A stretch of DNA of 64,000 bases from Patescibacteria group bacterium (lineage in GTDB: Bacteria; Patescibacteriota; Patescibacteriia; SG8-24), in NCBI GenBank assembly GCA_041667185.1, contig JBAYFM010000005.1:9285-73284 (forward strand), in the 5' to 3' direction. The translations under genes and the position numbers were made by a program. Within the stretch, counting starts at the first letter, position 1. Each line of letters starts with the position of its first letter. This document shows, in pieces, positions 25,556 to 47,448 of the stretch. The notes beneath the pieces were generated by a model. It was not told the DNA's origin, searched no databases, and saw only the letters and a list, made by a program, of their open reading frames with translations.

Positions 25556-25686
25556 TACGGCGCAGGTCGGTCCGCGGCAGCGGACTGACATTATAGACTA
25601 AAGCGCCGGTGGGCGCCACTTCTCGCCGTATGCCGCCTGGTCCCTGGGCGCAGCCCAGGGCGGCATACCAGCTGAGCTACGTCGGC
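25556..25686 (-). pseudogene. partial 5' copy of tRNA-Thr(GGT), nt 1-32, split in the D-loop by a 98-bp structured insert
   Basis: Minus strand reads GCCGACGTAGCTCAGCTGGTA, then a 98-nt insert (25568-25665) flanked by TA, then GTAGAGCATCTCT. The ~35-bp upstream region is also duplicated at 25687-25720. Confidence 0.5.
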
Positions 25687-42653: not shown

Positions 42654-43036
42654 GAGGGGAGTGCGGGAGAGACGGAGTTGGGAAGAGACGGAGTCAGGGA
42701 GTGCTGGAGTGCGGGAGAAATGGAGTTATCAAAACTCCCCCACTCCTCCACTCCCGCACTCTCCCATTCATTGGATCAGAGAGATGCGGAGAGACGGAGA
42801 TACGGAGTGCTGGAGTACTGAAGTGCTGGAGAGACGGAGTCACGTCGCTCGCGAACGACGTGGCGGAGTGCTGGAGTACTGGAGTTCTGGAGAGACGGAG
42901 TATCAAAACTCCCCCACTCCTCCACTCCCGCACTCTCCCGTTCAGTGGATCAGAGAGATGCGGAGATACGGAGTACTGGAGTACTGAGATGCTGGAGAGA
43001 CGGAGTCACGTCGCTCGCGAACGACGTGACGGGGTT
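42654..43036. repeat. dispersed composite inverted-repeat element, copy E (two tandem ~175-bp units)
   Basis: Each unit has module-1 arms around an ATCAAAACTCCCCCACTCC core, module 2, and palindrome GTCACGTCGCTCGCGAACGACGTG(A/G)C. Confidence 0.7.
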
Positions 43037-43053: not shown

Positions 43054-44193
43054 TCAACGGCTCAGTTTCGCGTACAGTTCCGCCGTGGCGGCGGCGATCC
43101 GGTCCCAGTCGTATTCCCTGGCCGCCCAGGCGCGCGAGCGCGCGCCGCGTTCGGCCACGACCTCGGGATGATTGAAAAGCGCTTCCAGCTTCTCGCGCAG
43201 ATCGGCGACGTCGGCTTTGACGAAAGTGATGCCGGTGTCGCCGACGGGTTCGAGATTCTCTGGAATGTCGGAGACCAGCACGCAGCGCCCGGCCGACATG
43301 GCTTCGATGATCGAGACCGACAGCCCCTCGGCTTCCGACGGGTGGACGTAAAGGTAGGCGTTCGCGAACAGCTGCCGCAGCGCGTCGCCGCTCTGGAAAC
43401 CGGTGAACACGATGGCAGAATTCCCGGCGCTGAGGTTGCGGATGTAGTCGGCGTACTCGCCGCCGAAACCCGGCGCGCCGGCGATGACCAGTTTCTTGCC
43501 GGTCGCGAGATCGCCGAAAGCCTCGATCAGATGATGGATGCCCTTCTGCCGGACCAGCCGGGCGACGGTCAGGATATAACCATCGGGTTCCAGGCCCCAG
43601 GTCTTCAGACGGTCGGAACCGGGATATCCTTCGAAACGCGAACCGTTGGGGATGTAGACCGTTTCCGCGCGGAACTGCTCGCGGCAATAGCGCTGGATGG
43701 TCTTCGAGACCGCGATGGTGGCGTGCGCGAACCGGACCGCGCACCATTCGCCGAAATACAGGTACGCCTGAGCCAGGCTCCCCCACTTCGGATGCAGCCG
43801 GTCGATGCTGTGAAACGTGATCACGACCCGGGCTCGCGGCTTGAACAATTTCGGTATCCAGGCCAGGGTCGCCGGACCGACGCCATGATAATGGACGATG
43901 TCGGCCGGCCGGAACAAGACCGCGATCGAGGCAAGAAAAGTGTGGGTCAGCGTATCCAGGCTTTTGGTGGGGATGGACGGCAGGCGCAGCAGCCGAATGC
44001 CGTTCCAGGACGCTTCCTTGGTGCCAACGAACCGCGGCCGGACATAAGCGCTCACGTCATGGCCCATGGCGGCCAGGCGGACGCCCAACTCTTCCACGTG
44101 GCGCTCGATGCCGCCGGAATCAGCCCGAACCGGCAGCCCTTTAAGGCCGATCATGACGATCCTGAGTTTTTTCCCGTTAAAAGCTTGATCCAT
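43054..44193 (-). CDS. family 4 (GT-B) glycosyltransferase
   Basis: EGLSVSIIEAMSAGRCVLVSD EX7E-type motif. GT4 architecture. Confidence 0.8.
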   Translation of the reverse strand: MDQAFNGKKLRIVMIGLKGLPVRADSGGIERHVEELGVRLAAMGHDVSAYVRPRFVGTKEASWNGIRLLRLPSIPTKSLDTLTHTFLASIAVLFRPADIVHYHGVGPATLAWIPKLFKPRARVVITFHSIDRLHPKWGSLAQAYLYFGEWCAVRFAHATIAVSKTIQRYCREQFRAETVYIPNGSRFEGYPGSDRLKTWGLEPDGYILTVARLVRQKGIHHLIEAFGDLATGKKLVIAGAPGFGGEYADYIRNLSAGNSAIVFTGFQSGDALRQLFANAYLYVHPSEAEGLSVSIIEAMSAGRCVLVSDIPENLEPVGDTGITFVKADVADLREKLEALFNHPEVVAERGARSRAWAAREYDWDRIAAATAELYAKLSR

Positions 44194-45688: not shown

Positions 45689-46309
45689 TTAAACGCCGGA
45701 CTTGCGAACGACGAGAAACCGACCGAAACTGTCATCAAAACATTTCCAACGTTGCTCGGAACTGAGTTTCAGCTGGCGACAGCAGTGGTTCGACCACAGA
45801 TACGGGACATGACAATGACCGCACGGATCCACCCACGAGGAGCCGAGGGCGAAGATGTGACCTTCACCATTCCATTTTATCCTGGCATAAGCGAGCAACT
45901 CGACAAGGGTCGCACTGCGATAACCATTCTGGTCGATGATGCGACGCAGATCGGCGGTGGACGTATATCGAAGGTCATCGTGGTCGCGAATGTTCAAGAC
46001 TACGATGTCCGATATGTCCGCAACCGGATCGGAGAGCGAAAAATTACGCTCATTGATGTCGGGGTCGACGATGTAACGAAAAGCCAAGTCGGCGGCCACC
46101 TGGGCAAAGGTGACTGTCTCTTTTACCTCGGCGGCGCCGATAACGAGCTTGGCCATCTTCCGGATGGTCGATCGGCCAGCACCCTTGTTGAGGGCGAACA
46201 GATGTTCGTCACTGCCGCCCAGATCAATGATGTCGGTGCGAAGCTTCAGGATGAGATCACCGATGAAACCCGCTCCCGCCACGATCGTCGAATCGTTCTT
46301 CTTTCCCAT
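45689..46309 (-). CDS. hypothetical protein with Cys/His-rich C-terminus
   Basis: SD GGAGTAGGAG. ...WVDPCGHCHVPYLWSNHCC... No recognisable family. Confidence 0.5.
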   Translation of the reverse strand: MGKKNDSTIVAGAGFIGDLILKLRTDIIDLGGSDEHLFALNKGAGRSTIRKMAKLVIGAAEVKETVTFAQVAADLAFRYIVDPDINERNFSLSDPVADISDIVVLNIRDHDDLRYTSTADLRRIIDQNGYRSATLVELLAYARIKWNGEGHIFALGSSWVDPCGHCHVPYLWSNHCCRQLKLSSEQRWKCFDDSFGRFLVVRKSGV

Positions 46310-46410
46310 GCTCCTACTCCTTTTCCGTGGGCTCGTCCCTCATCCCGCGTCATGCGGAACACCAGACTCGCCTTGAAAGGTACTACTTAAGGGCTAGGTT
46401 GGCACCAGTA

Positions 46411-46675
46411 GGCGGCTTTGTCAAAAGAAATAGCCCCATCCCTGCGGGATGAGGCTCTTTCTTATGGTGGGTCGGCTGCCGGGGATTCCTCCTCCCCCAC
46501 CGCTCGCTACTTGGGGCCCCTGCCCCAAGTGCTCACGGCTCCTCCGGAGCCCGCCGCTCCGCAACGCACCATACTAGGTGCGTTGGCGGAGTCGGCTTCG
46601 AATCCCAGACGACCCTGCGCAAAAGAAATAGCCCCATCCCTGCGGGATGAGGCTCTTTCTTATGGTGGGTCGGCT
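46411..46675. repeat. att-like 57/58-bp direct repeats (tRNA-Lys 3' end plus terminator) flanking a 150-bp structured segment
   Basis: 46411-46467 and 46618-46675 are near-identical (CAAAAGAAATAGCCCCATCCCTGCGGGATGAGGCTCTTTCTTATGGTGGGTCGGCTG). The intervening DNA has four or more GC hairpins. Confidence 0.6.
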
Positions 46676-46738
46676 GGGATTCGAACCCAGGACCATCAGC
46701 TTAAAAGGCTGTTGCTCTACCAGACTGAGCTACCGACC
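46662..46738 (-). tRNA. tRNA-Lys (anticodon TTT)
   Basis: GGGTCGGTAGCTCAGTCTGGTAGAGC... anticodon loop CTTTTAA. T-loop GGTTCGAATCC. CCA encoded. Confidence 0.9.
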
Positions 46739-46777
46739 CATAACGAACTGGTTGTTGTCGAACTAACCGTCTTTATT

Positions 46778-47037
46778 TGTTGCTCTACGACGCAGTTCAG
46801 TCGCTCTGCGACTGAACATTACAGATGCGCGGCTAAGGCCGCAACTCATCGTCGCAAGCCGTACTATCGGACGAACGGAGTCGCCGCGGCGGCGAAGTTC
46901 TGTTCGGCGGCTTACGACGCAGTTCAGTCGCTCTGCGACTGAACATTACAGATGCGCGGCTAAGGCCGCAACTCATCGTCGCAAGCCAGCATTAAAGTCC
47001 ATCTTCTTTCAGAATCAAGCTGGCTTACCAGACTGAG
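46778..47037 (-). pseudogene. partial 5' copy of tRNA-Lys split at the D-loop TA by a 229-bp insert
   Basis: Minus strand reads GGGTCGGTAGCTCAGTCTGGTA (47016-47037), then an insert (46787-47015), then TAGAGCAAC (46778-46786). TA is duplicated at both junctions. Confidence 0.45.
46787..46983. repeat. two 73-bp direct repeats, each folding into a two-hairpin dumbbell, separated by 51 bp
   Basis: Copies 46787-46859 and 46911-46983 are identical (CGACGCAGTTCAGTCGCTCTGCGACTGAAC...GCGCGGCTAAGGCCGC...CGTCGCAAGCC). Confidence 0.6.
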
Positions 47038-47223
47038 CTACCGACCCATGACGACGCTGTTTTTGATTTTGTCCGTCTCACATCAAACCGCTTGCCACCC
47101 GCAGATCCGCAGGAGTGGAGGGTGGGGCTACCGACCTATAACGAACGAACTTTATCGAAAACGCGGAGGAAGCGTAACAAAATCCCCCGCGTTCATCAAC
47201 TCTCTTCCAAAACGCCTACCGAT

Positions 47224-47448
47224 TTACATCTCGCCGGTCTCGGCCAAAAAGTCGTCGAACCGGGCCTGCAGCGATTCCTTGATCGACATCAGATCCTCAT
47301 CGTCGTCCATCTCCTGGAACTGCATCTTATCCTCAAGAAGTTCCTCGATGATCTGATCCCACTGCTCCCGCTCGAAAGCGCCCTCGGCGGTCGCTTTCTC
47401 TTTGGCCTCCACGAACAGCTCTTCAAGATCGAACGCTAAATTATCCAT
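47224..47448 (-). CDS. small highly acidic hypothetical protein
   Basis: 74 aa, D/E-rich. No motif. Confidence 0.4.
   Translation of the reverse strand: MDNLAFDLEELFVEAKEKATAEGAFEREQWDQIIEELLEDKMQFQEMDDDEDLMSIKESLQARFDDFLAETGEM

Follow-up and report, generated by a model that had tools for sequence, protein, structure and literature searches.

Directly downstream of tRNA-Lys in the 64-kb window (the whole 64,000-nt stretch of DNA analyzed here) lies a short segment that probably encodes a small structured RNA belonging to the tRNA-linked repeat (TLR) type, in an uncultured member of the Patescibacteria (CPR). This segment, hereafter the element, is best read as a new TLR-like small RNA that is not homologous to the TLRs of Escherichia coli. 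The unit is ordered tRNA-Lys, terminator T1, the element of ~150 nt and terminator T2; the element lies on the same strand as tRNA-Lys and begins 47 nt past the tRNA's 3′ end (Table 1).

The tRNA-Lys gene's 3′ end is part of an exact direct repeat whose two copies, A and B, are spaced 198 nt start to start with 141 nt in between. As the bases bordering the copies differ on both sides, the length of the repeat is 57 nt. The first-pass annotation had correctly recognized a direct repeat; its alternative length of 58 bp and its spacing of 150 bp were not borne out. The composition that it had proposed, the last ~14 nt of tRNA-Lys with CCA plus a terminator, was confirmed: read on the minus strand, each copy consists of CAGCCGACCCACCA, which is the last 14 nt of tRNA-Lys including CCA, and 43 nt containing an intrinsic terminator, which has a stem of 11 bp and, after it, AUUUCUUUUG. 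A terminator scan recognized both copies, and did so on the minus (tRNA) strand only. No third copy of the repeat was found within the 64-kb window, and the tRNA-end 14-mer had no further match there (0.03 expected by chance). The U-tract of T2 overlaps the predicted −35 box (TTGACA) in the promoter of the downstream gene, which encodes a protein of 206 amino acids.

The first-pass annotation had also raised the prospect that the repeat was duplicated during assembly. This was rejected, as two assemblies made independently (ENA ERZ27249449 and JGI 3300037810) contain this 914-nt intergenic arrangement in identical form, and both junctions were seen independently in contigs of related organisms, T1 to element in L039 and L040, and element to repeat to terminator in L043. 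The ERZ27249449 contig carries a k141_ name, and the k-mers used in that assembly presumably exceeded the repeat length.

Table 1 Features of the tRNA-Lys locus in the window.
Feature	Position	Strand	Evidence or remark
tRNA-Lys(UUU) gene, CCA encoded	46663-46739	minus	ARAGORN; Rfam RF00005, 74 bits
Direct repeat, copy A	46620-46676	minus	exact, 57 nt
Direct repeat, copy B	46422-46478	minus	exact, 57 nt
Terminator T1, part of repeat copy A	46620-46662	minus	terminator scan; repeat family D3
T1 hairpin AGCCUCAUCCC-GCA-GGGAUGGGGCU, then AUUUCUUUUG	46630-46654	minus	
Terminator T2, exact copy of T1	46422-46464	minus	repeat search; terminator scan
Element	46465-46615	minus	
5′ arm GGGUCGUCUGGGAUUCGAAGCC	46594-46615	minus	inverted repeat I1, 22 nt, 91% complementary; folds
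Hairpin 1: GCCG-A-CUCCGC-C-AACGCACC / loop UAGUAU / GGUGCGUU-GCGGAG-CGGC	46553-46596	minus	minimum-free-energy fold
Hairpin 2: GGCUCC-GGA-GGAGCC, with GGAGGAG motif	46537-46551	minus	minimum-free-energy fold
Hairpin 3: core CUUGGGGC-AGGG-GCCCCAAG	46502-46536	minus	minimum-free-energy fold
Hairpin 4: GGGGA-GGAGGAA-UCCCC	46481-46497	minus	minimum-free-energy fold
3′ arm: CAGCCGACCC + ACCA, the last 14 nt of tRNA-Lys	46465-46478	minus	start of copy B
INS, two tandem ~110-nt three-hairpin copies	46913-47025, 46786-46912	minus	repeat searches
Exact copy of tRNA-Lys nt 1–22, GGGTCGGTAGCTCAGTCTGGTA	47026-47047	minus	100% conserved in all relatives
More degenerate tRNA-Lys 5′ copy	47116-47155		

The four hairpins listed by the first-pass annotation are all present in the minus-strand sequence and in the minimum-free-energy fold of the element on that strand (−93.3 kcal/mol, z = −5.9). 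The plus strand folds equally well (z = −6.6); with z at about −6 on both strands, folding energy alone therefore shows neither the strand nor an action at the RNA level. The 5′ motif GGGTCGTCTGGGATTCGAAGCC, which had been described as an imitation of the acceptor/T-arm at the 5′ side, is indeed there but is actually a 22-nt inverted copy of the T-loop, T-stem and acceptor 3′ strand of the tRNA, to which it is 91% complementary. Its partner may be either the tRNA 3′ end (20 of 22 positions) or the 3′ repeat of the element itself. Because the 5′ arm is an inverted copy of the tRNA 3′ end, it pairs with the 3′ repeat and leaves an ACCA tail, and the two arms can thus close the molecule in a long terminal helix with that tail free. 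As modeled, this arm-closed helix can resemble a tRNA acceptor/T-stem minihelix; in the window its acceptor-like end is imperfect (one U-C mismatch, one 4-nt bulge), and in the homologous locus L028 this end is shorter. Within the 3′ repeat of the window, 14 nt match the tRNA exactly and 7 more (GAATCCC) match after a 4-nt insertion. A constrained fold showed that an alternative pairing, of GAAUCCC in hairpin 4 with GGGAUUC in the 5′ arm, is equal in energy (−93.1 vs −93.3 kcal/mol).

Using the 3′ half of tRNA-Lys, we fetched 13 metagenome loci. Three of these (L028, L026 and L023) display the order tRNA, terminator, structured segment of 100–150 nt, tRNA-end copy and terminator. Their tRNA-end copies run from the T-loop to CCA (20 nt in L028, 19 nt in L026 and L023), and their segments fold with z = −4.2 to −5.1. 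The segment of L028, a more distant contig, is a homologue of the window element, to which it is 67% identical along 130 nt (E = 1.5e-9 in a search among the collected sequences only), and follows a tRNA-Lys gene of the CUU isoacceptor, the window element following UUU. The related strains L039 and L040/41, at 77–90% nucleotide identity, retain the element after T1. In L043, also a more distant contig, the 3′ half of the element is 87% identical to that of the window, while T2, the promoter/5′UTR and the coding sequence are 68–69% identical and the neighboring protein 45%; its repeat matches the window tRNA end at 19 of 20 positions. The 5′ arm is kept in L039, L040, L038 and L028. L038, a close relative from sample ERZ27228609, diverges 14 nt into the element and its contig stops 46 nt further on; the element may thus be absent or replaced in some strains.

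The pattern of substitution points to selection on structure. In alignment A2, 11 of the 18 pairs of hairpin 1 have changed on both sides in a compensatory manner, a covariation that comes from only 4–5 sequences and is confined to this hairpin. Paired cells amount to 89.7% for hairpin 1, compared with 77% in shuffles (0 of 500 reach the observed value) and 37–46% when the partners are slid, and RNAalifold independently predicts the same hairpin. With these compensatory changes, and with the element conserved above its flanks, the first-pass option of a very small tRNA-attached structured RNA is favored. Hairpin 2 shows 94% pairing across sequences with no covariation, and its GGAGGAG motif, one of two conserved purine-rich motifs inside the element (the other being GGGGGAGGAGGAA), is retained in L039, L028 and L043. 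The stem of hairpin 3 is also present in L043, and L028 has a different hairpin at this place. Hairpin 4 carries the purine-rich motif GGGGGAGGAGGAAUCCC, which L028 retains and L043 nearly retains. The CUGGG × CCCGG pairing of L028 contains a U-G wobble and pairs on the tRNA-sense strand only.

A covariance model of hairpins 1–2 (R1) run over 271 kb of collected sequence matched only its own training sequences. Scanning of GTDB genomes with the tRNA 5′ 27-mer yielded mostly tRNA-Lys(CUU) genes of Peribacteria and one locus of Magasanikbacteria, none of them with an element. A spurious plus-strand ORF over the element found no homologues when used as a protein query.

In each of the 22 E. coli TLRs, the last 18–19 nt repeat exactly the upstream tRNA or rRNA 3′ end; the rrn TLRs are bordered by terminators T1 and T2, are produced by read-through and are then processed, and the TLR repeat has been suggested to be a processing signal (PMC8144298, where the TLR literature cited includes Egan & Landy 1978 and Rudd 1999). 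When this layout was looked for in our loci, a same-strand position directly downstream of a tRNA was found in the window, L028, L039 and L040, and a 3′ end copying the tRNA end in the window (14 + 7 nt), L028 (20 nt), and L026 and L023 (19 nt each). A terminal stem between the 5′ and 3′ ends was found in the window, L028 and L026. In the tyrT/tyrV region of E. coli K-12, the 5′ GGGGAAGGAU of each RtT/TLR unit is complementary to its 3′ AUCCUUCCCC (CACCACCA), and the minimum-free-energy fold of rttR closes exactly on the GGGGAAGGAU × AUCCUUCCCC stem. This 5′ complement forming a terminal stem was seen here in E. coli RtT and lies outside the published TLR definition.

The element thus resembles the E. 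coli TLRs (RtT/rttR, RF00391; RrA/RrB/RrF) in its strand, its position directly 3′ of a tRNA or 5S gene, its size class of ~100–180 nt, the T-loop-to-CCA copy at its end, the complementary 5′ part, the terminal stem with an NCCA tail and the GC-rich hairpins inside; like the rrn TLRs, it sits between T1 and T2. It differs from them in having no sequence or profile similarity, across the distance from Patescibacteria/CPR to Enterobacteria. The RtT model (RF00391, gathering score 45 bits) gave no match at E ≤ 10 over 46300-47300, and four E. coli units run as a positive control scored 133–137 bits. The Rfam scan that the first-pass annotation had suggested returned no RtT; tmRNA_permuted matched weakly, at 18.3 bits. 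In further contrast to the E. coli TLRs, the exact repeat of the window comprises 14 tRNA nucleotides yet all 43 terminator nucleotides, the element folds far more strongly than rttR (z of about −6 vs −1.1), and it is accompanied by a mirror-image element on the 5′ side.

Two other kinds of RNA share some of these traits. 3′ETS-leuZ of E. coli is a small RNA from the 3′ external transcribed spacer of a tRNA operon (mentioned in PMC8144298). Like the product predicted for our element, it is a non-tRNA RNA from a tRNA transcription unit, freed by tRNA processing. However, it precedes the operon terminator and has no tRNA-end repeat, whereas the element follows a terminator and owns both a tRNA-end copy and a terminator. 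Non-tRNA substrates of RNase P that carry an acceptor/T-stem-like helix and a 3′ NCCA include the precursors of tmRNA and of 4.5S RNA, and the C4 RNA of phages P1/P7. The terminal helix modeled for the element, whose 3′ ACCA overhang is the same as in tRNA-Lys, would be similar, but the window helix has a mismatch and a bulge and the helix end is not conserved in L028.

These features suggest a model in which the tRNA and the candidate RNA are probably transcribed together, the latter being trimmed by the enzymes that process tRNA. RNA polymerase would pass T1, itself a good terminator, and stop at T2, or would initiate at an unrecognized promoter. The tRNA-like terminal helix with its NCCA could let the tRNA-maturation machinery set the ends of the RNA: RNase P would cleave 5′ of G46615, and position 46465 would be where 3′ trimming takes place and the CCA enzyme acts. 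The outcome would be a stable RNA of ~150 nt whose abundance tracks tRNA-Lys transcription. Most likely, its exposed GGAGG-type motifs would bind a protein or else the anti-Shine-Dalgarno sequence of the ribosome, as suggested by the analogous rrn TLR small RNAs of E. coli (RrA/RrB/RrF), which bind CsrA and Hfq. As for the repeat, it most probably arose by duplication or recombination at the T-loop/3′ end of the tRNA and may now be retained as a supplier of processing and termination signals.

Two more specific functions were considered. The resemblance to CsrA-type GGA sponges (CsrB/RsmZ) is an analogy only, as enrichment over dinucleotide shuffles in the window element is not significant for GGA (7 vs 4.9 expected, P = 0.14, with 4 of the 7 unpaired in the minimum-free-energy fold) or GGAG (5, P = 0.06); for GGAG in L028, P = 0.014. 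A mini-ORF after GGAGGAG (GUG plus 9 codons in the window) has a start that is not conserved in L039 and L043.

Among alternative explanations, site-specific integration is unlikely, though it accounts for several observations. The segment could derive from a tyrosine-integrase element that recombined at the T-loop/3′ end of tRNA-Lys and was later mostly deleted, or be a 150-bp cis-mobilizable mini-element moved in trans, and the repeats would be attL and attR. As in genomic islands integrated at tRNA genes, and in their derivatives that lack an integrase (CIMEs), an insert is flanked by direct repeats of a tRNA 3′ end. In homologous and analogous loci the T-loop is where the repeat starts; in L028, L026 and L023 it begins with (G)AATCCCGGCCGACCCACCA and spans 19–20 nt. 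Integrases that target tRNA genes usually have an identity block starting in the T-loop. L024 contains a true islet (HigB/HigA, 893 nt) with a tRNA-Lys fragment at its boundary, and homologous elements stand behind two isoacceptor genes (window, UUU; L028, CUU). The 5′ arm of L028, moreover, carries CUGGG, unlike its own tRNA (CCGGG), while the 3′ repeat matches that tRNA; this would be expected of an interior that had moved and a 3′ repeat supplied by the target. The divergence of L038 inside the element is also consistent with integration.

Several lines of evidence argue against this. The insert is gene-free and only 141 nt long, and Pfam scans of the neighboring genes (roughly 35–58 kb), which include a Mur ligase, glycosyltransferases, MurG, FtsW and Lon, found no integrase, recombinase or other mobility gene within ~10 kb. 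There is no third repeat in the 64 kb, and searches of phages, plasmids and IMG/VR returned nothing matching the segment. Scans of IMG/VR with the tRNA 3′ end and three element motifs returned nothing relevant, the sole match (L035) being a chance one inside a coding region. Unlike an att site, the repeat takes in the whole terminator in the window (43 nt, exact) and in L026, which integration does not predict. The interior is conserved above its flanks and covaries like a structured RNA, its hairpin being kept by compensatory changes, as a neutral scar would not be. The first-pass annotation had proposed comparing related genomes, with a shared arrangement counting against att sites; L039, L040/41, L043 and L028 carry that arrangement, which largely speaks against the att reading, and in an empty-site comparison among a few relatives L039 and L040/41 keep the element, L038 diverging as described above. 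With no integrase within ~10 kb, no third repeat and relatives that keep the arrangement, the remnant of a deleted integrative element that had been offered as the other option fares poorly.

Less probable still is a decayed tandem duplicate of the tRNA-Lys gene and its terminator, in which the ends (GGGUCG... and ...CAGCCGACCCACCA) were kept and the middle was scrambled or expanded. The element does begin with GGGUCG like the tRNA and end with its last 14 nt and an identical terminator; partial tandem copies do occur in CPR contigs, as in L019 with three 77-nt partial tRNA-Gly copies, and the TLR units of E. coli hold T-arm-like remnants. Yet the 141-nt interior is about twice a tRNA body, has no D arm or anticodon arm, and shows structural selection on a non-tRNA hairpin. 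Over 46465-46619, neither RF00005 (even at E ≤ 10) nor ARAGORN detected a tRNA. For the 5′ arm, the best explanation is a reverse complement of the 3′ end (20/22), not a tRNA 5′ half, and the homologue in L028 follows a different isoacceptor gene.

It is very unlikely that the element acts only in cis, as a dual-terminator/insulator spacer or a single-stranded DNA structure that blocks read-through into the 206-aa gene and yields no free RNA. Two identical terminators 198 nt apart, the overlap of the downstream −35 box with the T2 U-tract, the equal folding of both strands and the element-then-gene order common to the window and L043 would fit such a spacer. A second terminator, however, needs no conserved 141-nt multi-hairpin interior, tRNA-end copy or complementary 5′ arm. 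Moreover, the same gene family occurs with the same promoter and 5′UTR but without the element in L007, L011 and L042, and the downstream genes of L028, L026 and L023 are unrelated. Homologues of the 206-aa protein (45–50% identity) are mostly found elsewhere, beside RT and Avd or a serine recombinase and without tRNA-Lys; as a source of synteny, L043 alone among their loci is informative.

A miniature or two-piece tmRNA-like molecule, suggested by the acceptor-like helix with its ACCA tail, by the 5′ motif GGGUCGUCUGGGAUUCGAAG that resembles a tmRNA 5′ end and by Rfam tmRNA_permuted (18.3 bits, E = 0.22, in the window; 14 bits in L028), is effectively refuted: ARAGORN is negative, the score is far under the 47-bit gathering threshold, the third acceptor pair is G-C and not G-U (no G3-U70), GGAGGAA replaces the T-loop, no candidate tag reading frame is conserved, hairpin 1 changes by compensatory substitutions, and L039 and L043 lack the GUG that follows GGAGGAG. 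The resemblance is a trivial consequence of the origin of the 5′ arm as reverse complement of a T-loop with the palindrome UUCGAA in it.

Upstream of tRNA-Lys and of tRNA-Thr, another conserved structured element was found, with INS sequence at 46786-47047 and 25557-25686. At the tRNA-Lys locus it takes the form of the tandem INS copies, which are the mirror-image, 5′-side counterpart of the 3′ element: they are preceded by a copy of tRNA-Lys nt 1–22 and followed by GAGCAACA (tRNA nt 23–30). Relatives carry a single INS copy at 88–95% identity. The first-pass annotation had passed over these 5′-side mirror duplications, as well as the inverted tRNA-end motif and the layout of the E. coli tRNA-linked repeats.

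Taken as a TLR-type structured RNA, the element shows that the E. coli TLR layout recurs at great phylogenetic distance, in a phylum with reduced genomes, where unrelated sequence makes it up and compensatory substitutions maintain it, and this recurrence argues that the layout is selected rather than accidental. It also provides a compact, testable model, in which the enzymes of tRNA maturation would be recruited by a tRNA-like terminal helix formed from the tRNA-end copy and its complement. A caution for annotation is that a short direct repeat of a tRNA 3′ end need not be an att site. The E. coli TLRs have been known since 1978 and are usually dismissed as recombination debris; to our knowledge they have no established function, and most are still unassigned. 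A broader and more tentative idea, which we hold to be possible rather than probable, is that CPR tRNA genes are flanked on both sides by conserved structured RNAs borrowing pieces of the tRNA: on its 5′ side INS behind a copy of tRNA nt 1–22, and on its 3′ side a TLR-like element that closes on an acceptor/T-stem mimic ending in ACCA. RNase P, 3′ trimming and the CCA enzyme would then make stable regulatory RNAs in amounts proportional to tRNA transcription, in a way not described before. If such a two-sided system is real, the TLRs of E. coli, which have lacked an explanation since 1978, would belong as one branch to a functional class that is widespread.

Flanking the structured element 3' of tRNA-Lys(UUU) is an exact 57-nt direct repeat of the tRNA 3' end and its terminator, as the first-pass annotation had proposed; the two direct copies lie 141 nt apart, rather than the 150 bp given there, and the bases beyond them differ at both ends. 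Each copy, taken on the minus strand, opens with CAGCCGACCCACCA, the 14 final nt of the tRNA, and continues for 43 nt that hold an intrinsic terminator (T1 after the tRNA and T2, its exact copy, after the element); a terminator scan called T1 and T2 on the tRNA strand only. This 14-mer has no further occurrence in the 64 kb, where 0.03 matches are expected by chance. Two independent assemblies, an ENA contig named k141_ (presumably built from k-mers exceeding the repeat in length) and a JGI contig, match the 914-nt intergenic region without a difference, which rules out an assembly artefact. Logan contigs (taken as k = 31) end 30 nt inside the repeats, as expected of true repeats.

Features of the tRNA-Lys locus and related loci (window coordinates unless a contig is named; L numbers denote metagenome or relative contigs compared with the window)
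Feature	Location	Strand	Details
tRNA-Lys(UUU)	46663-46739	minus	CCA encoded; ARAGORN; Rfam tRNA 74 bits
57-nt direct repeat	46422-46478 and 46620-46676		exact
Structured element	46465-46615	minus	
INS, three-hairpin element	46786-47025	minus	two tandem copies of ~110 nt, after the nt 1-22 copy
Exact copy of tRNA-Lys nt 1-22	47026-47047	minus	mirror-image 5' construction
Degenerate tRNA-Lys 5'-fragment copy	47116-47155	minus	further upstream
INS at tRNA-Thr(GGU)	25557-25686 (about)	minus	70% identity over 86 nt to tRNA-Lys INS, E = 9e-7
206-aa protein gene	45689-46309	minus	no Pfam domain
Promoter (TTGACA, 17 nt, CAAyCT) and 5'UTR motif (GTACCTTTC..GGCAAGCCCGGGGTTCCGCAnnnnGCGGGAnGAGGGGCGAGCC, covarying hairpin)	46310-46425	minus	
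Same promoter and motif	L007 3880-4000; L042 1650-1770; L043 165-288		

At its 5' end the element carries the tRNA 3' region in reverse complement, and at its 3' end a direct copy of the same region, so its termini are able to pair. Its start had been described as an acceptor/T-arm imitation; the likeness to the tRNA holds, in the form of a 22-nt inverted copy (inverted repeat I1), 91% complementary, of the T-loop, T-stem and acceptor 3' strand. The terminal helix comprises 9 pairs with one mismatch, a 4-nt bulge and then 7 pairs in the window; in the metagenome contig L028, pairing holds at 13 of 14 positions, one of them a U-G wobble valid on the tRNA-sense strand only. The ACCA tail stays unpaired beyond this helix, which, as modelled, is an imitation of the acceptor/T-stem stack of tRNA-Lys. 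All four hairpins quoted in the first-pass annotation occur in the minimum-free-energy fold of the minus strand (-93.3 kcal/mol, z = -5.9), and a fold with the extended terminal stem is as stable as that with the GGAGGAA-loop hairpin (-93.1 vs -93.3 kcal/mol). The plus strand also folds strongly (z = -6.6), and fold energy thus carries no strand information; the tRNA strand is indicated by the terminators and the U-G wobble pair. Between T1 and the element, no sigma-70-like promoter was detected.

Of the 13 loci recovered by a metagenome scan with the tRNA-Lys 3' half, three (L028, L026 and L023) share the same layout: tRNA-Lys, a terminator, a strongly folding insert of 100-150 nt (z = -4.2 to -5.1), a second copy of the tRNA end spanning T-loop to CCA (19-20 nt) and a terminator. 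The L028 insert is homologous to the window element (67% identity over 130 nt, E = 1.5e-9 against the sequences compared here), with CTGGGATTCGAAGCCGAC, GCGGCGGGCTnCGGAGGAG and GGGGGAGGAGGAATCCC common to both. Closer relatives (L038, L039 and L040/L041; 77-90% nucleotide identity) were found via the 74-aa upstream protein, and the element directly follows T1 in L039 and L040/41. In L043, found via a 45%-identical homologue of the 206-aa protein, the element 3' half and the tRNA-end copy are present, with a different terminator. Identity between L043 and the window is 87% in the element 3' half, as against 68-69% for T2, the promoter/5'UTR and the coding sequence. In hairpin 1, standard pairs make up 89.7% of cells across the window, L039, L028 and L040, compared with 77% in column shuffles (a value this high came up in 0 of 500) and 37-46% with slid partners; both sides changed in 11 of 18 pairs, and RNAalifold independently recovers the helix. 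This covariation and the conservation of the element against its flanks, comparisons resting on four to five sequences, support a small tRNA-attached structured RNA, which the first-pass annotation had offered as its alternative. Hairpin 2 shows conservation but no covariation, and L028 has a different hairpin in place of hairpin 3.

Among known systems, the nearest is the tRNA-linked repeat (TLR) family of E. coli, of which K-12 has 22 members at ten loci (PMC8144298). The rrn TLRs lie between terminators T1 and T2 of their own, are transcribed by read-through with subsequent processing, and in vitro they bind Hfq and CsrA; the authors proposed the repeat as a processing signal, and the tRNA-linked members have no known function (PMC8144298). 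In the sequence read here, every RtT unit of the K-12 tyrT-tyrV operon has on its 5' side GGGGAAGGAU, the complement of AUCCUUCCCC(CACCACCA) on its 3' side, and this stem closes the rttR fold. The window element has the same design, a terminal stem formed by the 5' complement of a 3' tRNA-end copy. However, the E. coli units score 133-137 bits with Rfam RtT, whereas the window gives no match at E <= 10. By layout the element therefore belongs with the TLR kind, as an unrelated sequence family in a distant phylum.

The competing view, that the repeats are the att footprint of an integrative element, now a scar or a mini element, is mostly not supported. It would accommodate the repeat starting in the T-loop in L028, L026 and L023, the occurrence of the element behind two different isoacceptor genes, an L028 5' arm unlike its own tRNA beside a 3' repeat that matches it, and the departure of L038 inside the element. 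L038 is near-identical to L039 upstream and leaves all others 14 nt into the element, just before the contig end (L038 846-891), so an alternative or empty allele is possible; its last 46 nt match none of the compared sequences, and it represents either an allele without the element or with a replacement, or a chimeric contig end. Yet the repeat extends through the terminator, the interior is conserved and covarying, and there is neither a third repeat in the 64 kb nor any phage, plasmid or viral match. Mobility genes are likewise missing nearby: no integrase or recombinase is found among the genes within ~10 kb on either side, where the recognisable ones are housekeeping (MurD-like ligase, GT2 and GT4 glycosyltransferases, translin-family protein, MurG, FtsW, Lon and a GGDEF protein). 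A genuine islet, in contrast, is present in L024, where an insert of 893 nt encoding a HigB/HigA-like toxin-antitoxin pair (L024 6990-7960) is flanked by tRNA-Lys(UUU) and a 48-nt tRNA copy from anticodon loop to 3' end, a conventional att-bounded arrangement. A decayed tandem tRNA copy is unlikely, given an interior of 141 nt, no detected cloverleaf and a 5' arm that is an inverted 3' end, not a 5'-half copy. A pure dual-terminator spacer leaves both the conserved interior and the tRNA-end mimic unexplained, and tmRNA-like readings were rejected.

For the structured RNA, we propose that read-through of T1 would yield a transcript ending at T2; RNase P, together with 3' trimming and CCA maintenance, would set its ends, and it may accumulate as a stable ~150-nt RNA. 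Its conserved GGAGG-type motifs suggest that it might bind a protein or an anti-Shine-Dalgarno sequence; GGA/GGAG enrichment in the element is not significant. A short ORF after the first such motif is not conserved and was discarded.

NCBI attributes the neighbouring 206-aa protein to a "Patescibacteria group bacterium" MAG. Homologues (37-50% identity) adjoin an RVT_1 reverse transcriptase and/or a bAvd-type accessory protein (L007, L008, L010), and that in L010 also neighbours a large serine recombinase; this suggests that the family is the target protein of a diversity-generating retroelement. Near the gene in the window, no reverse transcriptase was seen. The conserved promoter and 5'UTR motif precede all examined family members except those in L010 and L044; the motif, for which an Rfam E-value scan of its window region gave no match, could be an undescribed leader or riboswitch-like motif. 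Upstream of the L044 family gene sits a tRNA-like sequence (L044 165-240) with a good acceptor stem, T-arm and CCA (GGGCCCAGC...GGAGTTCGATTCTCCATGGGTCCACCA), which ARAGORN does not call. Self-comparison also revealed a ~170-nt tandem repeat (87% identity; 42689-43032) close to, or in overlap with, the 3' end of the GT4 glycosyltransferase ORF (43054-44193, minus).

On the 5' side of tRNA-Lys, the INS pair is followed by GAGCAACA (tRNA nt 23-30), a spacer and the intact tRNA. L038, L039 and L040 carry one INS copy (88-95% identity) and keep the 22-mer at 100%. The INS at tRNA-Thr(GGU) follows a copy of nt 1-21 of that tRNA and precedes GAGCATCTC, 186 nt upstream of the intact tRNA-Thr; its hairpins are compensatory relative to the tRNA-Lys INS, a 32-nt leader is duplicated too, and it has no Rfam match. 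In the RNAalifold consensus of INS, 8 of 29 pairs are compensatory and G-U pairs favour the tRNA strand. Past its second terminator, L028 (700-830) has another inverted tRNA 3'-end copy (GTCGGTCGGGATTCGAACGG) and then an INS-like three-hairpin sequence; both element families thus co-occur in its organism too. Peribacteria contigs (L015 2770-2960 and 7530-7726; L019 1-250) bear tandem 93-nt units upstream of tRNA-Ile, each with tRNA-Ile nt 1-18 and then a hairpin, and similar tandem units upstream of tRNA-Lys(CUU); in L019, tRNA-Gly(GCC) is followed by a tandem array of three partial tRNA-Gly copies of 77 nt whose 5' acceptor strand is defective. Duplicated tRNA ends around structured inserts therefore seem common in CPR genomes.
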